Source: Candidatus Woesearchaeota archaeon
Lineage (GTDB): Archaea > Nanobdellota > Nanobdellia > Woesearchaeales > GW2011-AR9
Reading direction: 5' to 3'
Length of the DNA stretch: 64,000 nucleotides
NCBI GenBank assembly: GCA_945861715.1
Contig: CAMAVK010000001.1
Span: forward strand, 458,908-522,907
The notes below the pieces were generated by a model that made no database searches, was not told where the DNA came from, and saw only the letters and a list, made by a program, of their open reading frames with translations. A program made the position numbers and the translations under genes. Below are positions 4,683 to 52,839 of this stretch, in pieces. Each line of letters begins with the position of its first letter. Position 1 is the stretch's first letter.

Positions 4683-6179
4683 GTGGGTAACATTAAATCA
4701 ACAATTTTCATCGGATTAATTATCTTATTATCTTTGGTAGGTGCGTCGCAAGTAAACGCAGCTCTCGAAATCTTAGAACAAAACGTAACTTTAGACGTTG
4801 ACTATGGCGACTTCATAAACGAAGATCAACTCACTATACGTGAAAGTTTTTCTTTTACGGTAAGAAATTCAAACAATGATGCAGCATCATTAAAATTTAC
4901 ATTCGATAGTTTACCTTCTGGCTATAACGCCTCAACAATAAATACCATCAATTTAAGTGCAGGTGAAGAACGTTCAATAACTGGTTCAATTGAAGTACCA
5001 CACACCCGCGCAACCGGTCGTTCAAATATTGGTTCTTTAGTATTACGAGATCTCAATAACGCTGAGTTAGATCGCTTAACTATTGACCAAACGACCAAAA
5101 GCATGCTTTTCATTGATAGACTAGAAGTTGATTATACTGACGTAGACGGAAACTCACAGTCCGACCGGTTTGATGCAGCTGATCAAACGCTCAATCTTGA
5201 CGAAAATGTTCGTCCCGGAAGTGAAATTACTATTACTATAACCTACAAAAATCAATTTGATCGTGATTACGATAGCGATAAATCTGTTATTGAAGATATT
5301 ACTCTTGATATAGAAGCAAGTGATAGCGACTTATTTGATGACAGTATAGATGACAATGTCGATCTTTCTGATCTGGATGCAAATGACAAAGAAGAGTATC
5401 AAATTCAAGTTAAAATCTCTGACACCATTGACGCTGATAGTTATGATGTCGAATTCACCTTAGAAGGAACTGATGGAGAAAATTTTGACCATAATGATCA
5501 AAAGACCTTAAAAATTGATGTTGAACGTCTAAGAAATGATGTTCGAGTTACCAATAGCGAAATTACCGGGCCCGTTGATAGCTGTGTCCAAAGTTTATTC
5601 TTTGATATCAGTATACAGAATTTTGGAACAAGAGATCAAAAGTATGTTGCCTTTGCTCTAACCAACACGGAGATGGGCATAAATTATAAAGTCAATGATC
5701 TCCTGCTAGAGAAATTCGATGATGACGACACATATTCCAATCATGTTGAAATTCCTCTAACTAAGACCTTGAAGGAAGGGTCACAATCAATCGATCTCAA
5801 AGTGTTCACTGATCGCGATAATCTCATTGACCAAAAAAGAATTCCACTACAAGTAACAAAGTGTACAACGGCTTCAAATACTCCTGTGCAGACAACCACC
5901 TCAACGGGTTCCAGCACGAGTGTCAGCTCTGGAAATGGAACAACTGCTGGTACAACAAGCACTAAAAACGCAACCGCAGCTCAAACTGGGGCCGGATCAC
6001 AAACAACGACTCCTTCCACATCAGATACCACTACCTCCTCTGTCCCGGTGGGAGCAAGTGTCATACAAACAGTCGAAGAACCCTACAGCACAGATGATTT
6101 CTTTGTAGGTGGCTTAATTGTTGCAATAATTGTGGTTGTGGCATTAATAGTCGTATTTTTCATACTGCTCCTTCGATAA
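4683..6179 (+). CDS. Secreted, very acidic (D/E-rich) surface protein with an S/T-rich stalk and a C-terminal TM anchor
   Basis: GTG start. Signal peptide IFIGLIILLSLVGASQVNA. Long D-rich tracts (DSDLFDDSIDDNVDLSDLDANDKEE). S/T-rich linker (TTTSTGSSTSVSSGNGTTAGTTST...). C-terminal GGLIVAIIVVVALIVVFFILLLR. Confidence 0.6.
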   Translation: MGNIKSTIFIGLIILLSLVGASQVNAALEILEQNVTLDVDYGDFINEDQLTIRESFSFTVRNSNNDAASLKFTFDSLPSGYNASTINTINLSAGEERSITGSIEVPHTRATGRSNIGSLVLRDLNNAELDRLTIDQTTKSMLFIDRLEVDYTDVDGNSQSDRFDAADQTLNLDENVRPGSEITITITYKNQFDRDYDSDKSVIEDITLDIEASDSDLFDDSIDDNVDLSDLDANDKEEYQIQVKISDTIDADSYDVEFTLEGTDGENFDHNDQKTLKIDVERLRNDVRVTNSEITGPVDSCVQSLFFDISIQNFGTRDQKYVAFALTNTEMGINYKVNDLLLEKFDDDDTYSNHVEIPLTKTLKEGSQSIDLKVFTDRDNLIDQKRIPLQVTKCTTASNTPVQTTTSTGSSTSVSSGNGTTAGTTSTKNATAAQTGAGSQTTTPSTSDTTTSSVPVGASVIQTVEEPYSTDDFFVGGLIVAIIVVVALIVVFFILLLR

Positions 6180-26969: not shown

Positions 26970-28145
26970 TTAAATAGACTTCAAATAATGTTCCAAGAAC
27001 GTCTCTGTAAACCGTTGCCGATGCGGCTCAAACACTTCAGCTCCAGACTTATTCTCCCCCCTCATACAAAAATGCCGTCGTTCAAAAAAAGTTTCAAGTG
27101 CAGTATGAGCATCCTGAACCACATCGTAAAGATTAATCAAAGTACTTATTTCTAAATGTAAGATGTTCTCCAATGAAGACAGAGTACGAACACCAAATAA
27201 ATTTCTTGGGTCATCTTGCGTCAGTTTTTTAGCTATTTTTATCTTTTGAGTCCTAATCAAATACTCTGTTTGCAACGCATGTAAACGCACAAACGCAGCA
27301 TCATAAAGTGGCGTGCCTCTATTGCTAATTAAAGAGATAGTCCTCTCTTGAAAATCTAATTTTTCTTGCAGCTCCAATAGCTTACGTTTATCAAACATAT
27401 CTTCTTCTATTAATTCAAACAACCTTGCCGTTCCAAAATCAATCACTTTTCGAGTTCCCTTAAAGTTAGACCGAAACTCATCCATACAATGACCATGATT
27501 ATAATTAATACCGAGCCCCGCAAGATCCGCATACGTTCTTGCACATTCTTCAACAATAGAACCCATCGCAGCACAATAGTGATCAAGCCGATCGGATTTT
27601 GAGTCTAGGGTTGGCAAAGTTTGTTTCGAGAGTAACTCTTCTGCATAAAATTGAGAACCAAGATGAAGTACCTTGGGCCCTATTTTACCACTTACAATCT
27701 CAAGCACTTTTTTCTCCATGGATTGATTATATTTGTCATAAGGTTTTACAACAAACTGTCCGCACGATGCACTAACGACAAGCGGAATCCTCCCACTACC
27801 TCGAACCAAACGAGCTGCATGTCCACGCCGCTTCTCAAACGCCGTTTGTTCTCGCATAAAATCAACCTGACAAAATCCCACACCCATCTCGACAAGAAGT
27901 AACTCGGCTTCACGAAAATACGCATCACTTACTTGAACATAATTTGGAACATAAACCTTATCCTGCATATCCTGATACAACTCATCTTCTGTTCTTCTAC
28001 ATTTGAACAATACTCCTTGCGGTGGTCCACGTTGATTCCCATTTGTAAGCAAAGTGTGAGTCTCCCGTGTTCGACCATATTGTTCCACATAAGTCAAACC
28101 TTGAACACCTACCATTGATCGAATCACAAGAGGTTCTGCAGTCAT
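26970..28145 (-). CDS. Divergent protein-kinase-like (ePK-fold) protein, paralogue A
   Basis: beta3-Lys-like QFVVKPYD. alphaC-like VLEIVSG. Catalytic-loop-like CMDEFRSNF (D...N spaced as in HRDLKPxN). DFG motif VIDFGTARLF (compare DFGLAR) 16 residues after the catalytic Asp. A unique ~140-aa N-terminal domain. Overlaps the next gene by 4 nt. Confidence 0.5.
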   Translation of the reverse strand: MTAEPLVIRSMVGVQGLTYVEQYGRTRETHTLLTNGNQRGPPQGVLFKCRRTEDELYQDMQDKVYVPNYVQVSDAYFREAELLLVEMGVGFCQVDFMREQTAFEKRRGHAARLVRGSGRIPLVVSASCGQFVVKPYDKYNQSMEKKVLEIVSGKIGPKVLHLGSQFYAEELLSKQTLPTLDSKSDRLDHYCAAMGSIVEECARTYADLAGLGINYNHGHCMDEFRSNFKGTRKVIDFGTARLFELIEEDMFDKRKLLELQEKLDFQERTISLISNRGTPLYDAAFVRLHALQTEYLIRTQKIKIAKKLTQDDPRNLFGVRTLSSLENILHLEISTLINLYDVVQDAHTALETFFERRHFCMRGENKSGAEVFEPHRQRFTETFLEHYLKSI

Positions 28146-29436: not shown

Positions 29437-30705
29437 TCAAACTTTACTTCCAACAAAAATATTGTGTTTATCTCGAGCAATCTTCACTTTAATTGGCATA
29501 TCACGGCGAAACTCAACATCCGGAATAGATATTGTTCGACCCTGTGCAACCGCAATAACTCCACCCGGAAAACGATCCACTGATTTAACAATCGCATTCA
29601 CCACATCTGCTTTCTTAAATGGTTTAGGAAGTTTCTTCGTTTCACGGATTTTAAAATCATCCTTCGACCAACGCAGTTTAATCTTGTACTTTGTCTCCCA
29701 TCCTTCAATGAGCTTGTAAAATTTGTCCCATGGAATTTCTTGTGCAGGATTACGTCCCGTTTTATATCGTAAGAAATTTTGAATACCTAATTTAGGCTGT
29801 ACCTCAAGACCAGCAATCCATGCAATAACCTTTTCCATCTCAGCTTCATTGTATTTTTTTACCATCACCGGAGCTACAATCACATTCAACCGAGCAGAGG
29901 CATATGAAATAACCTCGAGCACGTGCTTAATATTATAATTAGTAATACCTGCCATCTTCTTTGCAATGTCAGGGTCAATTGCATCCAGCGACAAATTAAG
30001 TTGCAATTTAGTACACAACGCCAACCTATCAATCATAGCTTTCGAAAGCATCGTACCATTTGTGTCAATAGAAATGGTATGTATCATCGGATGCGCTTGC
30101 AAATCGGTTATCAATCCCTCAATATCTCCATACAGAAATGGTTCGCCCTGTACCCCAATGTGTATCTCAACTGGTTCACCAACAAACTCCAGTAAGGTAA
30201 ATAATTCCGAGACCATATAATCTTTCTCAACGACAAAATCATTTTTACGCGATGACAAACCCTCTGAAATAGAGCAGTACACACAATCCAAATTGCATCC
30301 ATTCATTGGTTTTATCTCAATTATACTCGATTCGCGATACACAATACCAAACGCCACATTACCAAAGAGTGGGATTCCAGAGTTACGATGAAGATACGTT
30401 GCTTTATTCCCTGTTAAACTTGTTTTCAAGGAATCCAACGCCTTCGAAAACATATGTGAAAATTTTATTTCGGCCTTTTCTTGATCAATTTTAGTGAATT
30501 CAATGGTATGGGCATCAATAAGCTTCCAAGGAGAAATTCTATCCATCTCAGAACACAAAATTTCCGTAGTGTACAACTTAAGCAAGGTAATCTTGAGTAC
30601 ATCTCCTATTTGTTGAAATGAAAGAGTTTCAAATGTGAGTATTGCCATGTATTTTGTTTTGTAAATTTTAAATATTGGATCAAGCACTATTAACGGGCCA
30701 GCCAA
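29437..30705 (-). CDS. Radical SAM enzyme with a C-terminal TRAM-like domain. Not MiaB/RimO type; the ~120-aa N-terminal domain is unique.
   Basis: CxxxCxxC cluster CNLDCVYCS. GGEP-type motif GVQGEPFLYG. SIDTNGTML. C-terminal VVNAIVKSVDRFPGGVIAVAQGRTISIPDVEFRRDMPIKVKIARDKHNIFVGSKV resembles a TRAM beta-barrel. Confidence 0.55.
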   Translation of the reverse strand: MAGPLIVLDPIFKIYKTKYMAILTFETLSFQQIGDVLKITLLKLYTTEILCSEMDRISPWKLIDAHTIEFTKIDQEKAEIKFSHMFSKALDSLKTSLTGNKATYLHRNSGIPLFGNVAFGIVYRESSIIEIKPMNGCNLDCVYCSISEGLSSRKNDFVVEKDYMVSELFTLLEFVGEPVEIHIGVQGEPFLYGDIEGLITDLQAHPMIHTISIDTNGTMLSKAMIDRLALCTKLQLNLSLDAIDPDIAKKMAGITNYNIKHVLEVISYASARLNVIVAPVMVKKYNEAEMEKVIAWIAGLEVQPKLGIQNFLRYKTGRNPAQEIPWDKFYKLIEGWETKYKIKLRWSKDDFKIRETKKLPKPFKKADVVNAIVKSVDRFPGGVIAVAQGRTISIPDVEFRRDMPIKVKIARDKHNIFVGSKV

Positions 30706-33550: not shown

Positions 33551-35056
33551 TTATGCATTACTTTCTAAAGCTCCCTTAGCTCTTCGCCGAAATACACCCA
33601 TACCCATTGATGCCATCTGAGATACTGATGCTGGAACTTCTACATTCAATCCGCGCAATATTTCTGCTGCCTGAGCTGCTTTTCGAGCTTTAGCAAAATC
33701 AACCGGTGCCGCAGCAAGTGCATAACGCGCCTCATCAATGAGTTCTCGCAGTGGTTCACCAACTTCATCAGCGACAAGTTCCGCAACATCTGATACCGGA
33801 ACAAGCGCTGTACTGACATCTTGAGAACTTGAAATAGCAGAATGCTCATACCCAAGCAACGCAAGCGCCTTATGAGCACTTCCAATTACTTTGGTATCGC
33901 CACCTTGAATAGATTTCACCACAGGTCCAACATGTGTAAGAGCATCAAAAGCCGCCTTTCTATTCTCACCCAAATCATATTCTAGGCGAGTAAGTAAACT
34001 CGCAAAAAAAGTATCTGTGTACGGTGTAATCTCTATAACATTATGTCCTCTATCTAATCCCTCAGATTCCAGGAATCGAACTGGTGGAGCACGTTTATTT
34101 ACTCTGCCTCGAGTGGCACTGGCTGGACCTTGTTTTTGAGGTGTATAATTTTCATTAATCAAATATAACAAACGACTCTCAAGCGGACCAACATCAAGTC
34201 GTTCCCCTACTTCTCTCTAACTTAAATCACGTGCAAGGCCAACAAGACCTGGGAGAATTTGTCCATATGTTCTCATCTCGGAACCAACAGTATACATCTC
34301 TTGACGTAGAGGTCTCATAACAAAATCAGCTCCACTCACACCACTATTAAAAAGATTACCAATTCGGCCACTATAATGATGCGAAATAGCTTCTGAACCA
34401 CGTGATCTTTTAACATACTGATTGTGATGATGTGCATTTGCTTTAGCTTCAACGCGTTCAACATAATATTCTAAACTCTTCTCCATTTGGAGCGCAATAG
34501 CAGTACAATCGCGACCTCCATACGCCGCTCGAATTTCTTCAAAAACGGAGTCATCCAATGCAGGGGCCAACTCAGAATCCTTTTCATACAAATCGATGAG
34601 TGATGAAACATCACCAGCACGAAGAACATCTGTGGCGTAGGTTAAAACACCTGTTAAAATAAAATCTCGTCTTGCATCTCGGCCTAGAGAATTAAGAAAA
34701 CCATCATCTAAACCCCACTTTTTCTCAAGCTCTCGTGTATCCATCTGATTATACGCAAGATGCATTGCAACAAATGGTGCAAGAACAGGACTTATATGTT
34801 TAGATACAAATACCCGTGAATTTCCATCTGTATCACTGTCAGAATAACCTATCTTACTATGACAAATATCACTCAACGCAGTTTGAGGTACAATATAATA
34901 TGAAATTTTCTCTTCACCAACAGTGGTTGTCCAAGGTTTTGAATGTTCTACAATCTCATCCGTAGAATATCCTACCTGTTGAGTTGGTATAAGCTTTAAT
35001 TCCAGCGTAAATGTCATACTACCCTCTAATCGGCTTTTATTTAATAATCTTATCAC
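33551..35056 (-). pseudogene. ~500-aa conserved-looking hypothetical gene interrupted by a single in-frame TAG; alternatively a stop-codon readthrough gene
   Basis: Track ORFs 34217..35056 and 33551..34171 lie in the same frame, separated only by TAG (...GLVGLARDLS*REVGERLDVGPLESRLLYLINENY...). The downstream part has no ATG or RBS of its own; the track 'M' is a TTG. Confidence 0.45.
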
Positions 35057-35145
35057 GTAAAAGTAAATAATTCACCCCCTTTAGATTATAAATCAGCAAC
35101 CTTACCACAACAATCTTTAAAATCACCTCTCCCAACCAAACACTG

Positions 35146-42432: not shown

Positions 42433-43632
42433 ATGAAAAAGGTGGTTGATGCTGTTATAATTATTATACTTCTATTATCACTCACATCCATCGCACTAGC
42501 TGACACCTATATCAGTGGAGTTTTTCCCACTATCAATAGTACCAACATCAACGCGTTTCAAGTCAATGGAAATGCAGCACAAACCGGAAGTGTACTCCGG
42601 CTTACTCCCGCGTCTAACAATCAAGCAGGTAGTGCATTTTGGAAATACAAAACGGATTTTCCTGCCAACCGCTCATTTGCAACTTATTTCTCATTTCAAA
42701 TAACAAGCACGGGTGGCGGCGGAGCTGACGGATTAGTCTTTGTCATACAACCCGATTCAAATACGGCTGGATCTTCAGGAGGCGGCCTTGGATTCTCCGG
42801 CATACCAAACGCATTTGGTGTCGAATTTGATACCTATCAAAACGGTGACTATGGTGATCCGAACGGGAATCACATTGGTATTGATTTAAGCCCGGGTGGT
42901 TTGGGCAGCGTTACTTCTGTAGCCACTGTTACCGTTGACTCAATCAACTCCTCGTGGTCTCTTGAAGATGGGGCAATATATCACACCTGGGTTGAATATA
43001 ACGGGAGTACCCAAAATATTACTATTCGCTTGAACCGCAACAACAATACTCGTCCAATAAATGCAGTATTAAATTACACCACAAACCTCTCCAATGTATT
43101 TGCACAGCAAGCGTACGTCGGCTTTACTGCTGCTACTGGCGGTGCCTACGAGAATCACGATATAAACAGCTTCTTCATAAATAATAACTATCTCTCTGAC
43201 GGAATAAACATTAATACGACCACTTATCAACCCTATGCATACAGGCTACTATTAAGCCAAAGTCATTTAAACGTCTCCGCCGATGGATACTCCGTCTCCG
43301 CTATAACCATCAACGCAACCGATCTTGATGGAAACTTATTACCCACTCAAAACATTTCTTTTACAACAACCTTGGGAAACATTATGCCTTTAGGGGATAA
43401 ATATGCTTCAAGTGGTTTAACTAATAGCACAGGTCAATTGTATCCAGTCTACGCTAGTTCCCATCTACCTGGAACCGCAACTATCACTGCCTCCGTCCCA
43501 GGTGGAGCATATAATATCACTACTGTGACTTTTTTAAATAGTGGTGCAACTGTTCCTGAGTTATCAACTATAGCTCTATTCCTCATCATCGCATCTGTTT
43601 TCTCTGGGTTCTTTTATATACGCACAAAATAA
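42433..43632 (+). CDS. Secreted surface protein with an N-terminal L-type (legume-lectin-like) lectin domain, a Big-like domain and a C-terminal TM anchor
   Basis: Signal peptide IIIILLLSLTSIALA. Legume-lectin signature blocks FQVNGNAAQTGSVLRLTP...NQAGSAFW...FATYFSFQITSTGGGGADGLVFVIQP...GGGLGFSGIPNAFGVEFDTYQNGDYGDPNGNHIGIDL. C-terminal ELSTIALFLIIASVFSGFFYIRTK. Confidence 0.65.
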   Translation: MKKVVDAVIIIILLLSLTSIALADTYISGVFPTINSTNINAFQVNGNAAQTGSVLRLTPASNNQAGSAFWKYKTDFPANRSFATYFSFQITSTGGGGADGLVFVIQPDSNTAGSSGGGLGFSGIPNAFGVEFDTYQNGDYGDPNGNHIGIDLSPGGLGSVTSVATVTVDSINSSWSLEDGAIYHTWVEYNGSTQNITIRLNRNNNTRPINAVLNYTTNLSNVFAQQAYVGFTAATGGAYENHDINSFFINNNYLSDGININTTTYQPYAYRLLLSQSHLNVSADGYSVSAITINATDLDGNLLPTQNISFTTTLGNIMPLGDKYASSGLTNSTGQLYPVYASSHLPGTATITASVPGGAYNITTVTFLNSGATVPELSTIALFLIIASVFSGFFYIRTK

Positions 43633-43767
43633 TTGACCTAGCATCCCAATCCCACTGTCTCATCCTCCCCGAAAACTTTATAAACAACCTACATTCTTGG
43701 TCCCTTACCGTTAAAACTACACACAGTATGCGTCATATTCTGCGTTCTGCCAATGTAGGAGGGAAAT

Positions 43768-44409
43768 ATGGAAAAAGCTGAAATTCAAAAAGCACTCAAG
43801 GAAGTAAACGCGCAACCAAAACGCAAGTTTGTACAATCCTATGAGTTAATAATTAATCTAAAAAACATTAACCTAAAACAAACATCTGTAGATTTCTCTG
43901 CAACACTTCATCACACAACAGGTCGAAAAGTAAAAGTATGTGCTTTTGTTGACAATGCACTTTTTGACCAAGCAACCAAATCCTGTGACAAAGTAATAAG
44001 AGATACTGAATTCGCTCTCTACCAGCAAGATAAAAAATTAGCAAAACAGTTAGCCCAAGAGTTTGATTATTTTGTAGCTCAATCAACTCTTATGGCTAAA
44101 GTTGCAGCTGCCTTTGGTAAAGCACTTGGAACCAGAGGAAAGATGCCAAACCCAAAAATGGGTTGCGTTGTACCACCAAACTCTGCTATGGAACCGCTTA
44201 TTAAAAGACTCAATACCACCGTAAGATTTGTTGCCAAAAAAGGTATGAATTTACAAGTACCAATTGGTAAAGAAAATCAATCAGAGGAAGAAGTAATCGA
44301 TAATATTTTTACTGCTGTTCAAACTGCAATAAAATCACTTCCAAACGAGTCCCAAAACATCAGAAACGTATTGCTCAAACCAACAATGGGCAAGCCGGTG
44401 AGGATCTAA
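43768..44409 (+). CDS. rpl1: 50S ribosomal protein L1 (uL1)
   Basis: AAAFGKALGTRGKMPNPKMG and the overall L1 fold pattern. GGAGG 8 nt upstream of the ATG. TAA stop. Confidence 0.88.
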   Translation: MEKAEIQKALKEVNAQPKRKFVQSYELIINLKNINLKQTSVDFSATLHHTTGRKVKVCAFVDNALFDQATKSCDKVIRDTEFALYQQDKKLAKQLAQEFDYFVAQSTLMAKVAAAFGKALGTRGKMPNPKMGCVVPPNSAMEPLIKRLNTTVRFVAKKGMNLQVPIGKENQSEEEVIDNIFTAVQTAIKSLPNESQNIRNVLLKPTMGKPVRI

Positions 44410-44410
44410 A

Positions 44411-45250
44411 ATGGTTAACGAGCAAAAGAAAACAATAGTTACCCAACTAGTCAGCGACATTAAATCATACCCTATTGTTGGATTAGTAAATATGTCCAGT
44501 CTTCCTGCACCACAATTACAAAAGATGCGTAGCGCCTTAAATGCTAAGGGTGTAAAAATCACCATGGCTCGAAAACGCATTTTAGAGCGTGCCTTAGGTG
44601 AATCCAAACGAAGCGGAATTGACTCACTCACCAAAATGCTTAAAGGAATGCCAGCCTTAATTTTTGCAAAAGACAATCCATTTGCGCTCTACGGCACACT
44701 TCAAAAGAGTAAATCTGAAGCACCTGCAAAAGCGGGCCAAATTGCTCCTCGAGATATCGTAGTAAAAGCTGGTGCAACAAACTTCTTACCAGGTCCAATC
44801 ATTTCCGAGTTAGCAGGAGTAGGAATCAAAACGAAGGTAGAAGGTGGAAAACTCGCAATCATCTCCGACACAACAGTAGCAAAAGAAGGTCAAATGATTA
44901 CTGGCAAACTTGCTGAGACCCTAAAACGACTTGACATCAAACCAATGGAAATTGGTCTTGACCTTGTTGCAGTATGGGAAAACGGCGAAGTCTTCGAAGG
45001 TAAAATCCTACATATTGATGAAGCAGAATTTGCAGCGAAACTTACACAAGCAGCATCATGGGCAGTTAATCTCTCCGTTGAAGCAGCATACCCAACTCAC
45101 GACACATCCGAAATCATCCTTCAGAAAGCATTCAGAGAGGCTAAAGCAGTTGCCATTGAGGGCGCTATCATCACTGAAGAAACCCGAGACGAGATCCTCG
45201 CCCGAGCCGATCGCCAAGCTCATAGTGTCCAAAAAGAGGCCAATCTCTAA
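44411..45250 (+). CDS. rpl10: 50S ribosomal protein L10 / acidic ribosomal protein P0 (uL10)
   Basis: N-terminus KKTIVTQLVSDIKSYPIVGLVNMSSLPAPQLQKMRSAL... typical of archaeal P0. Immediately follows rpl1. Confidence 0.85.
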   Translation: MVNEQKKTIVTQLVSDIKSYPIVGLVNMSSLPAPQLQKMRSALNAKGVKITMARKRILERALGESKRSGIDSLTKMLKGMPALIFAKDNPFALYGTLQKSKSEAPAKAGQIAPRDIVVKAGATNFLPGPIISELAGVGIKTKVEGGKLAIISDTTVAKEGQMITGKLAETLKRLDIKPMEIGLDLVAVWENGEVFEGKILHIDEAEFAAKLTQAASWAVNLSVEAAYPTHDTSEIILQKAFREAKAVAIEGAIITEETRDEILARADRQAHSVQKEANL

Positions 45251-49522: not shown

Positions 49523-50080
49523 ATGGTGGAGAAATCAACAGCACATTTACGTAGCATCATCACTCAAATTCATACTCTCTCAAAGGATCTCCTCGCAAAA
49601 ATTAACGACGACATTCGAGAGAATTCTGTCACCCTAGGGGTAAGACCACGAAAATTATCAGATTTATCGGTAGCATCCAAAGGTATCCTAGAAGCCCAAA
49701 TCATAATCAAAAAGATACATAAACTCAGAACTGATATGAATGTGTATCAGGTGGTATGGGCTAAAACGCAAATCGCAGCTCTGCCACGAGAAAACATTGA
49801 AACGAGGTGGACTATCGCCGTTTCTCAATTAAATCAAGAGATTGCGCAAAGAACAACCCTCATTCAAAAAAATCTCCTCAATGCCTACGAACTCTTAGAT
49901 CATTACTCAACTAATTCAATTCAAGATCAGCATGAGCAAGGAGCTACAGATGATGATATCAACAGTTCATGGCAAACTAATCACAGCATTCTCACCGAAT
50001 TATTGCGACAAACACGACAAGCATCAGACGAAATGAGAGACAAAATTAGTACCACCCTCATGTTTTTACCAACGGCATAG
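49523..50080 (+). CDS. Hypothetical protein (185 aa)
   Basis: ORF only. Confidence 0.3.
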   Translation: MVEKSTAHLRSIITQIHTLSKDLLAKINDDIRENSVTLGVRPRKLSDLSVASKGILEAQIIIKKIHKLRTDMNVYQVVWAKTQIAALPRENIETRWTIAVSQLNQEIAQRTTLIQKNLLNAYELLDHYSTNSIQDQHEQGATDDDINSSWQTNHSILTELLRQTRQASDEMRDKISTTLMFLPTA

Positions 50081-50113
50081 GTAACTTTACAAGATCAAGT
50101 AATCATCCACTAT

Positions 50114-50797
50114 CTACTTAAACAACTGCATCACATATTTCTTCGAACCAATATACTCTTGATCCATAATCTCTCGAACTCGAGCTAACTCCATTGCAGG
50201 TTTATACACTCGTTTAGAACTAAGTGCATCATAAATATCCGCGCATGCAAGCATTTCTCCCAAGCTCAAATTAACCGCGTTGGTTTGCCTACGTTCCAAA
50301 CTCCAGTCCCTTCGATCAGACTTGGCTCGAGCATCCACCGGAACCATCAGTTCACGGTTTCTCCTTTCCTCGAGTCGACGATCATCTCCACTACGAGGAT
50401 ACGATGCAATTTGATATTCATGATGACTCACAACAATTTCTCGTACATCTTGTTTAACTCCAGTAAGAATCATAAACCCAAGTCGGGCATGAGATTGCAT
50501 CACTTTTCGCTCCGCTTCATCAAGTGGTCATGCTTTGCACAGTACACAGCCTGGAATATCTTTTTTTCCCACATCATGTAAAGTACCTGCTTCACCAATG
50601 TTTCTAAGCTGCTCATCACACAAATGATTACGCACCCCCAGATACATACTCAAACGTCCAACTCGAACCATATGTTCATAACTATCTTGATGCACTGCTC
50701 GAACCTCCTCTAAGTGTTCTTTAACCGTTTTATCTTCAAGAATGGAAGCATACATAGCAGTAACACGTAATGGAAGTGTGAATTTGTCTCTTGTCAT
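50114..50797 (-). pseudogene. HD-GYP-like (HD superfamily) phosphohydrolase interrupted by one in-frame TGA
   Basis: Upstream piece ...LHDVGKKDIPGCVLCKA, then TGA, then in the same frame PLDEAERKVMQSHARLGFMILTG...VVSHHEYQIASYPRSGDD. This matches the HD-GYP consensus HDIGK..IP..IL.KPGKLT.EEF..MK.H...G.....HHE..DGSGYP, with the stop sitting where the KPG glycine would be. Confidence 0.5.
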
Positions 50798-50903
50798 ATT
50801 AGTCTAAAAAGAGCTCTTTTTTTAAAAGATCGTTGCCTCTATTTTCAAAAAATAGTAATCTCATGATGTAATCTTTTTATAGAATATTCCTTCTCATAAT
50901 CCA

Positions 50904-51395
50904 ATGAAATATCTTGCATATTTTCAACCTAGTCCGGAACTTGCAACTCTCATCCAGACTCAGGACTGCATCATAATTCCTTCCTCTGGTTTACACACAA
51001 CACTTTGCACCTTTCACATGGAACAAAACCAAGAGTCCATCCTGATCTCAAACCTTTCGAAAATCCCCCTCAGCGCATTTGAAGTTGAAACTCAAACCAT
51101 CGCCCTTTTTGACAAAGAATCCCTCGTTCTGAAACTAACTCGTCCACCTGAATTATATCAATTACATCAAGACATCACAGAAATAGTACGTACCCACGCA
51201 ACGCCAGAATTCAACCAAAGGTATCAAACATACTTTGGACCAAAATATAACCCTCACATTACTATCTCTAAATCCTACACAGACTTCAACACGTCCACCC
51301 CTCTATTAAGCGGGCACACCTTTCGGGTAGAAAATTTTTATCTAGCAAAAAAAGTAGAAGAAAAGTGGATTGAAATTTCTAACTTTACCCCATAA
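50904..51395 (+). CDS. 2H phosphoesterase superfamily protein (LigT / 2'-5' RNA ligase-like)
   Basis: Two H-x-T/S-x motifs in the correct spacing: GLHTTLCTF and NPHITISKS. Confidence 0.6.
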   Translation: MKYLAYFQPSPELATLIQTQDCIIIPSSGLHTTLCTFHMEQNQESILISNLSKIPLSAFEVETQTIALFDKESLVLKLTRPPELYQLHQDITEIVRTHATPEFNQRYQTYFGPKYNPHITISKSYTDFNTSTPLLSGHTFRVENFYLAKKVEEKWIEISNFTP

Positions 51396-52402: not shown

Positions 52403-52708
52403 TTAACGCTTCTTAGCAGGAGACTTCTTAGCAGGAGCTTTCTTTACTGCCTTTTTAGCAGGAGCTTTCTTAGCAGCCTTTCGACCACGTGCCATCTTTG
52501 CTCGACAAACGTTTCCTTTACCATCGATAAAGTACAAATAACCAGATTCCTTCTTCACACCAGCTCGTGCAACAAGTTCTTTCTTGGTCTTACCTTTCTT
52601 GCGACCTGCTCTGCTCATTACAGCTCGGCAAACATCGCCATTCTTATCAACGAAGTATAGATACCCACCTTCTTTCTTTACAGCAGTTTTTGCTACGACT
52701 TCAGCCAT
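52403..52708 (-). CDS. Small basic protein: two 36-aa tandem repeats plus a histone-H1-like AKK-rich tail; putative nucleic-acid-binding protein
   Basis: Probable start at the ATG at 52706-52708 (MAEVVAK...). Repeat VAKTAVKKEGGYLYFVDKNGDVCRAVMSRAGRKKGK then VARAGVKKESGYLYFIDGKGNVCRAKMARGRKAAKK. Tail APAKKAVKKAPAKKSPAKKR. AGAGGTGGA is upstream. The track ORF (52403..52810) extends further upstream through a low-complexity leader. Confidence 0.5.
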   Translation of the reverse strand: MAEVVAKTAVKKEGGYLYFVDKNGDVCRAVMSRAGRKKGKTKKELVARAGVKKESGYLYFIDGKGNVCRAKMARGRKAAKKAPAKKAVKKAPAKKSPAKKR

Positions 52709-52839
52709 ATTACATCCACCTCTTTTTTGAAAAATTCTAAGTTGATGAAGAATTAAAAGTATATAAAGGTTTCGAGTACACTGTATTTTCCCCCGTCTAC
52801 AAAAGAACAAACATCAACCAGAATCACTGTTTTTATGCT

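Follow-up and report, generated by a model that had tools for sequence, protein, structure and literature searches.

A TGA codon at the KPG glycine of an archaeal HD-GYP-type gene, very probably a recent nonsense mutation

On the minus strand of a contig from a Woesearchaeota-related archaeon, a frame of 227 codons that reads as an HD-GYP-type phosphohydrolase carries one internal stop, a TGA at codon 90 (plus-strand 'tca', 50525-50527). Has the gene been broken by a mutation, or is the TGA read as an amino acid? We addressed the question in the window, by which we mean the whole stretch of 64,000 nucleotides analyzed here (64 kb of a contig of ~797 kb), and by comparison with homologues from other genomes and metagenomes. 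The features of the locus are collected in Table 1; all positions are those of the window.

Table 1. Positions of the interrupted gene, its parts and the window tRNA
Feature	Position	Strand	Basis
Disrupted HD-GYP-type phosphohydrolase gene, stand-alone, 227 codons	50797..50114	minus	translation, HD_5 match, intact homologues
Start ATG of the HD-GYP-type gene	50797-50795	minus	
Terminal TAG of the HD-GYP-type gene	50116-50114	minus	
In-frame TGA, codon 90, at the KPG-motif Gly (PmGH Gly237); GGA in the sister strain	50525-50527	minus	DNA alignment with L017, nine homologues
N-terminal open piece, 89 aa (P0011), with predicted ligands D38/H42/H74/D75 only	50528-50797	minus	ORF list, 4mcw alignment
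C-terminal remnant ORF (P0001), with predicted ligands H103, H125, H126, D187 and the R196/K199 pair	50114-50503	minus	ORF list
A/T-rich box TTTTAAAAAAA, ~20-30 nt upstream of the ATG	50817..50827	minus	sequence, inferred
tRNA-Lys(CUU), intron of ~39 nt after the anticodon loop	25961-26072	minus	Rfam, 50 bits

The stop lies in the context GCA-TGA-CCA, which contains no homopolymer, and the C directly 3' of the TGA makes it a UGA-C context. The 137 codons 3' of the TGA are still open, and there are no indels relative to the closest relative of the locus, contig L017 of a sister strain (see below). The remnant ORF, which encodes 129 aa if started at the GTG at 50503 or 128 aa if started at the ATG at 50500, has acquired no added stops or frameshifts and appears as a separate gene call (P0001) in public assemblies. 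Every residue that is invariant in a ten-sequence alignment (window plus nine homologues) is kept in the window copy. Upstream of the gene, the A/T-rich box may be an archaeal TATA-like promoter element serving a short-leader or leaderless mRNA. The box region is identical in L017, and TTTAAA/TTTATA-like boxes are frequent at a similar distance in the upstream sequences of a set of 38 window ORFs.

HD-GYP features of the interrupted protein

When the frame was translated through the stop, the Pfam profile HD_5 (PF13487, HD-GYP-type) matched residues 37-128, that is, across the TGA, with an E value of 1.1e-10 and 41.9 bits; the curated cut-off of this profile is 27.2 bits, and neither half of the protein passes it alone. 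The match bears out the initial annotation, which had recognized an HD-GYP-like gene with an in-frame TGA. The nearest solved structures by sequence (phmmer) were PmGH (4mcw, E 3.5e-13), V-cGAP3 (5z7c), and PA4781 (4r8z). The fold was assessed on an AF2 model (pLDDT 75, pTM 0.80) of P0002, a 54 % homologue and not the window protein itself. The HD-GYP fold is defined by a five-helix HD core with extra C-terminal helices, and the best eight Foldseek matches of the model were all HD-GYP structures (4mcw, 4r8z, 9rbz; E 2e-6 to 1e-4), with PgpH and Bd1817 ranking after them. The model thus groups with the HD-GYP fold.

PmGH holds its metals through E185, H189, H221, D222, H250, H276, H277, and D305 (PMC4159591). 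Ligands were mapped by phmmer alignment to 4mcw, whose chain numbering is +6 relative to that publication. All eight equivalents are kept, as D38, H42, H74, D75, H103, H125, H126, and D187. The lysine equivalent to PmGH K225 (K78) and the equivalents of the substrate-binding pair R314/K317 (R196/K199) are also retained in the window copy.

The two signature motifs of the family depart from consensus. In PmGH the KPG motif includes Lys235 and Gly237, the backbone carbonyls of which touch the second guanine of c-di-GMP (bioRxiv 10.1101/2021.11.05.467447); their counterparts here are K88 and position 90. The window copy reads K-A-stop at this motif and the sister strain K-A-G; in the short subfamily to which the protein belongs, position 89 is Pro in 39 of 131 representatives and position 90 is Gly in 63 of the 131. 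The second motif, HHExxDGxxGYP, reads HHEYQIASYP, with no DG and with Ser replacing the Gly of GYP. The initial annotation had rightly called this motif degenerate. Across the whole short subfamily, [P/S/A]-Y-P-R is the norm, and judged by these alignments the degenerate GYP is a property of the subfamily, not decay. In PmGH, the G284A, Y285A, and P286A substitutions caused no substantial loss of activity (PMC4159591).

Its profile match, its predicted ligand set, and the modeled fold of its homologue place the protein in the HD superfamily, on the HD-GYP branch. Its substrate would presumably be a cyclic (di)nucleotide; no GGDEF or EAL gene was found among the window proteins scanned. In profile, ligands, K78, and R196/K199 it is like the HD-GYP phosphodiesterases PmGH (4mcw), PA4781 (4r8z), V-cGAP3 (5z7c), and DvhD (9rbz). 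In contrast to known HD-GYP phosphodiesterases, it is a stand-alone protein of ~227 aa without a REC or sensor domain, has HHEYQIASYPR for HHExxDGxxGYP and K-A-(G/stop) for KPG, and is encoded in an archaeal host by a copy that is cut by a stop.

A stretch rich in Arg, Glu, and Asp (…RSGDDRRLEERRNRELMVPVDARAKSDRRDWSLERRQTNAV…; residues ~135-198, window 50204-50395, minus strand) separates the xYPR motif from the last ligand helix. This Arg/Glu-rich insert is 24-26 residues longer than in the aligned bacterial HD-GYPs, and in the AF2 model of P0002 it is a region of low confidence (pLDDT < 50, residues 137-161).

The ancestral codon and the decoding of TGA

An exact-sequence cluster look-up placed the two fragments of the interrupted gene, P0011 and P0001, in one 90 % cluster with an intact protein of 227 aa, P0012, whose sequence around the site is '...CVLCKAGPLDEAE...'. 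P0012 comes from a different ENA assembly (ERZ27280328) of another metagenome, where it is encoded on contig L017 (1,229 bp). L017 aligns with window 49820-51048 over all 1,229 bp with 16 mismatches and no gaps (98.7 % identity). Codon 90 is GGA in L017 and TGA in the window, a single G>T difference. Within the gene the two strains differ at ten positions: five of the differences are synonymous, four are non-synonymous (V55M, G83D, P153Q, and R196L, window versus L017), and one is the nonsense change.

Uninterrupted homologues across the site are P0012 (98 % identity), P0002 (54 %, 228 aa), and an ORF of contig L002 (43 %, 215 aa). An alignment was made with homologues from a whole-database search, namely P0002 and bacterial HD-GYPs, response regulators included. 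In nine of nine aligned homologues a Gly stands opposite the TGA, on the Gly of 'KPGPL', so that the stop does sit at the KPG glycine, where it had been placed on first reading. The local motif is 'CKPGPLEP' in P0002, 'AKDGPLEG' in the archaeal MAG ORF of L002, and 'KPGPLD' in seven bacterial HD-GYPs. Because P0002, L002, and the bacterial homologues all have Gly, we take Gly to be ancestral and TGA to be derived. A scan of GTDB representative genomes returned one archaeal relative only (L002, 43 %) and otherwise distant bacterial HD-GYPs. JGI metagenome scans, with peptide patterns or with a 28-base DNA pattern around the stop that had N at the variable base, yielded no further alleles.

We then considered how TGA is used elsewhere in the window. 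The 45 non-overlapping long ORFs end in TAA (30), TAG (11), or TGA (4). Reading through the four TGA ends would add just 6-16 residues before the next stop, and one of the four forms an ATGA stop/start overlap with the next gene at 28142-28145. A radical-SAM gene (29437-30651, 404 aa) ends in '...NIFVGSKV-TGA'. At E <= 1e-10 this gene matched 1,026 homologues; among the 120 listed, the majority have a length of 403-405 aa and cover 99-100 % of the window gene, and in an alignment with 12 of the homologues, 10 end exactly where the window protein does. The initial annotation had proposed looking for TGA inside other conserved domains, and there was no in-frame TGA among the 16,331 codons of the 46 other window ORFs, the Gly codons of which comprise 934 standard ones (345 of them GGA). 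As regards a tRNA-Gly(UCA), the sole tRNA of the window is an intron-containing tRNA-Lys(CUU), which is not a suppressor. A scan of the window for same-frame ORF pairs with homology support returned two only, the present TGA gene and a TAG-split gene at 33551-35071.

To judge by this 64-kb window of the ~797-kb contig, the organism uses TGA as a normal terminator. Termination by TGA in other conserved genes is what the annotation had set against recoding, and such termination was found as far as the 64-kb window allows, at the end of the radical-SAM gene and in the ATGA overlap. Two alternatives had been left side by side, a single-base pseudogene lesion and a recoding of TGA as Gly; the former is upheld by the GGA of the sister strain, and the latter is not.

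A probable recent nonsense allele and its alternatives

The interruption is very probably a recent, strain-specific GGA>TGA nonsense mutation, not a recoding event. On this reading, the gene of this DPANN-like archaeon coded for a small metal-dependent phosphodiesterase of the HD-GYP type that stood alone, without further domains. One G>T transversion in the sequenced strain changed Gly codon 90 from GGA to TGA, and translation would end after residue 89, giving a product that would keep four of the eight metal ligands and be without the HHE, xYP, D-x-x-D-A-L, and R-x-Y-K elements. The stop divides the predicted active site into D38, H42, H74, and D75 on one side and H103, H125, H126, and D187 on the other. 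The activity of PmGH was all but lost when any one of six of its ligands was replaced by Ala, and it was markedly reduced by E185A and D305A (PMC4159591). The 89-aa product should be inactive, because the stop parts four predicted ligands from the other four. The outcome would be loss of function and a pseudogene of very recent origin, and the TGA allele is presumably fixed rather than polymorphic.

The lesion looks recent, with no further stops or indels and with the invariant residues kept. Between the strains, pN/pS was ~0.22 for the HD gene (Nei-Gojobori; 4 non-synonymous changes/531 sites, 5 synonymous changes/147 sites), a two-strain value that is uninformative on the time since the lesion or on selection after it. 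Being well below 1, it suggests a mostly constrained shared history, though the changes are too few for a firm conclusion. Three neighboring genes of the ribosomal-protein region, compared with contig L018 of the sister strain, gave pN/pS of 0.05, 0.04, and 0.

The sister allele has peculiarities of its own, for P0012 (L017 252-935) carries R196L and P153Q. Of 131 family members, 129 have Arg at position 196, which corresponds to the c-di-GMP-binding R314 of PmGH; position 153 is Pro, invariant in the ten-sequence alignment. Both strains would then have a damaging change (the stop in one, R196L in the other), and the gene may be dispensable and decaying in the species, with selection possibly relaxed in the two strains alike; alternatively, R196L and P153Q may be errors in the low-coverage, 1.2-kb contig L017. 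The two sister contigs also differ in their distance from the window. In the ribosomal-protein region, L018 is 96.1 % identical to window 42819-45060 (pS 0.10-0.14), and around the HD gene L017 is 98.7 % identical to window 49820-51048 (pS 0.034). These unequal identities suggest uneven divergence or recombination between the strains.

Pseudogenes made by nonsense mutation are a known and ordinary phenomenon. The present allele is like ordinary prokaryotic nonsense pseudogenes and strain loss-of-function polymorphisms in having a single-base change as its sole lesion under the standard code; there is no notable difference, and the only special point is the small-genome DPANN-like host. Gene loss is common in small-genome DPANN-like archaea. 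As a routine loss-of-function allele, the gene should not be taken to mean that this lineage has an alternative genetic code, and gene callers would be right to split or flag it.

It is unlikely that the TGA is a minority allele or an artefact of sequencing or of the consensus, the real codon being GGA and the gene intact in most cells. A single-base substitution would suffice to produce it, and the evidence is at the level of assemblies, where a MAG consensus can carry minority variants. However, the site is not a homopolymer, and the TGA is present both in the deposited 797-kb contig and in a Logan contig (it was seen in two samples). The Logan assembly of run ERR3719144 came from a different assembler and matches the window at 100 % identity over 6,387 bp, a stretch that contains the TGA. 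This agreement provides independence of method, not of data, as both assemblies may use the same reads. The two fragments, P0011 and P0001, are both listed from NCBI, ENA, and Logan. An artefact of the assembler is unlikely given the identical Logan contig.

Functional read-through or site-specific recoding, with Gly inserted at the UGA or with a near-cognate tRNA (Trp, Cys, Arg) reading it often enough for full-length enzyme to be made, appears decidedly improbable. The 137 open downstream codons and the retention of alignment-invariant residues would agree with it, but an intact downstream frame is expected after any recent lesion. A second window gene has an in-frame TAG, and the stop has the UGA-C context. 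UGA-C is the leakiest stop context in bacteria and eukaryotes, and some read-through product is conceivable. Against decoding as a sense codon stand the plain GGA of the near-identical strain, the TGA at the expected end of the conserved radical-SAM gene, and the count of 0 in-frame TGA in 16,331 codons. Nor does the RNA offer a signal: the 71 nt that begin with the stop codon have no notable fold (z = -0.7), the 127 nt that begin with the terminal TAG and reach into the 3' region show no unusual one (z = +1.0 versus shuffles), and there was no Rfam match at E <= 10 in 49800-51000. A weaker form of the idea, in which partial UGA read-through yields some full-length enzyme and the TAG gene at 33551-35071 is rescued likewise, has a slighter chance still. 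If true, read-through of both genes would point to unusually leaky termination in the lineage; nothing observed requires it.

There is only a faint likelihood that we are dealing with a functional split gene, in which the 89-aa and 128-aa pieces are both made and reassemble into an active enzyme. Both halves are intact, and a GGAG lies 6-9 nt upstream of the GTG at 50503 and the ATG at 50500 that follow the stop. This GGAG and ATG also occur in the unsplit sister gene, as part of the plain coding sequence for 'EAERKVM'. Moreover, the break falls within the helical core, between ligand-bearing helices, and the split is younger than the 1.3 % divergence of the strains, which leaves no time for adaptation.

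A genome-wide TGA>Gly reassignment, like translation table 25 of Gracilibacteria/Absconditabacteria, is extremely improbable. It would share with that code a TGA where Gly is conserved, and a single base change leads from GGA to TGA. In contrast to table 25, the present TGA is a single occurrence in an archaeal lineage (intron-containing tRNA-Lys, TFB, L10P with archaeal insert, PAC2) where TGA terminates, as seen at the C terminus of the radical-SAM homologues and in the ATGA overlap, and the sister strain has GGA. None of the Gly positions of the 46 ORFs is encoded by TGA, against 934 standard Gly codons. Within the 64-kb window, the codon counts, the TGA-ended conserved gene, and the sister GGA exclude a genome-wide TGA=Gly code.

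A selenocysteine codon has next to no probability: the in-frame UGA does stand in an enzyme beside two Cys (CVLCKA-U), but the sister strain has Gly, the site residue is never Cys (or Trp) in 131 short-family representatives (G 63, S 23, T 13, A 9, E 8, D 7, K 3, R 2, N 2, F 1), a permissive search of 49800-51000 returned neither a SECIS element nor any other Rfam match at E <= 10, no notable RNA structure was seen, and no Sec machinery was found among the ~35 window proteins scanned.

The archaeal host, the short family and other features of the window

The host is a small-genome DPANN-like (Woesearchaeota/Nanoarchaeota-related) archaeon, as judged by its gene content. The window proteins include TFB (TFIIB), MetRS, TYW3, MutS, ribosomal L1, L10P with the archaeal insertion domain, and PAC2, and those homologues of the radical-SAM protein that have a named source are labeled Woesearchaeota, Nanoarchaeota, or archaeon. 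The G+C content of the window is ~39 %. The tRNA-Lys(CUU), sole tRNA of the window, was missed by ARAGORN in bacterial mode.

The interrupted protein belongs to a large family of short, stand-alone proteins (~200-230 aa) in which 'HHE[FY][QK]xx[PSA]YPR' takes the place of the canonical GYP signature. At least 150 representatives of the family were found at 50 % identity (E < 1e-19). Galperin and Chou noted that archaeal HD-GYPs are, with one exception, known from MAGs only and might be contamination (bioRxiv 10.1101/2021.11.05.467447). Two archaeal contexts bear on this doubt, a matter separate from the recoding claim. The window gene lies on a contig of 797 kb (796,844 bp) amid genes for TFB, MetRS, L1, and L10P, and the L002 homologue (4980-5627) lies between a Rad51/RadA-family recombinase-like gene and the gene for ribosomal protein S2. 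The contigs of the family members P0142, P0144, and P0148 are just 1-2 kb long, and their context is uninformative. Because the window gene sits inside a 797-kb archaeal contig and the L002 homologue has such neighbors, the short HD-GYP-like subfamily appears to be genuinely present in archaea.

The second interrupted gene of the window (33551-35071, minus strand) has its in-frame TAG at 34217-34219. Only one homologue could be detected, P0015 (450 aa, 27 % identity, pairwise E 2e-46); the alignment runs through the TAG without a break and puts an Ile at the stop. The two halves are singletons in the protein collection, in NCBI, Logan, and ENA assemblies, and the collection holds no near-identical strain copy that would reveal the ancestral codon. 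Because TAG ends 11 of the 45 other long ORFs, this gene probably carries another nonsense lesion.

A small, very basic protein is encoded at 52403-52810 on the minus strand. It has two 'KKEGGYLYF(V/I)DxxGxVCRAxM' repeats and a Lys/Ala/Pro-rich tail, matched no Pfam family significantly, and may have a role in chromatin or in binding nucleic acids. Finally, the plus-strand GC skew is negative in every 2-kb bin of 1-64000 (cumulative -6.1); it is unusually uniform, and the same for genes on either strand.
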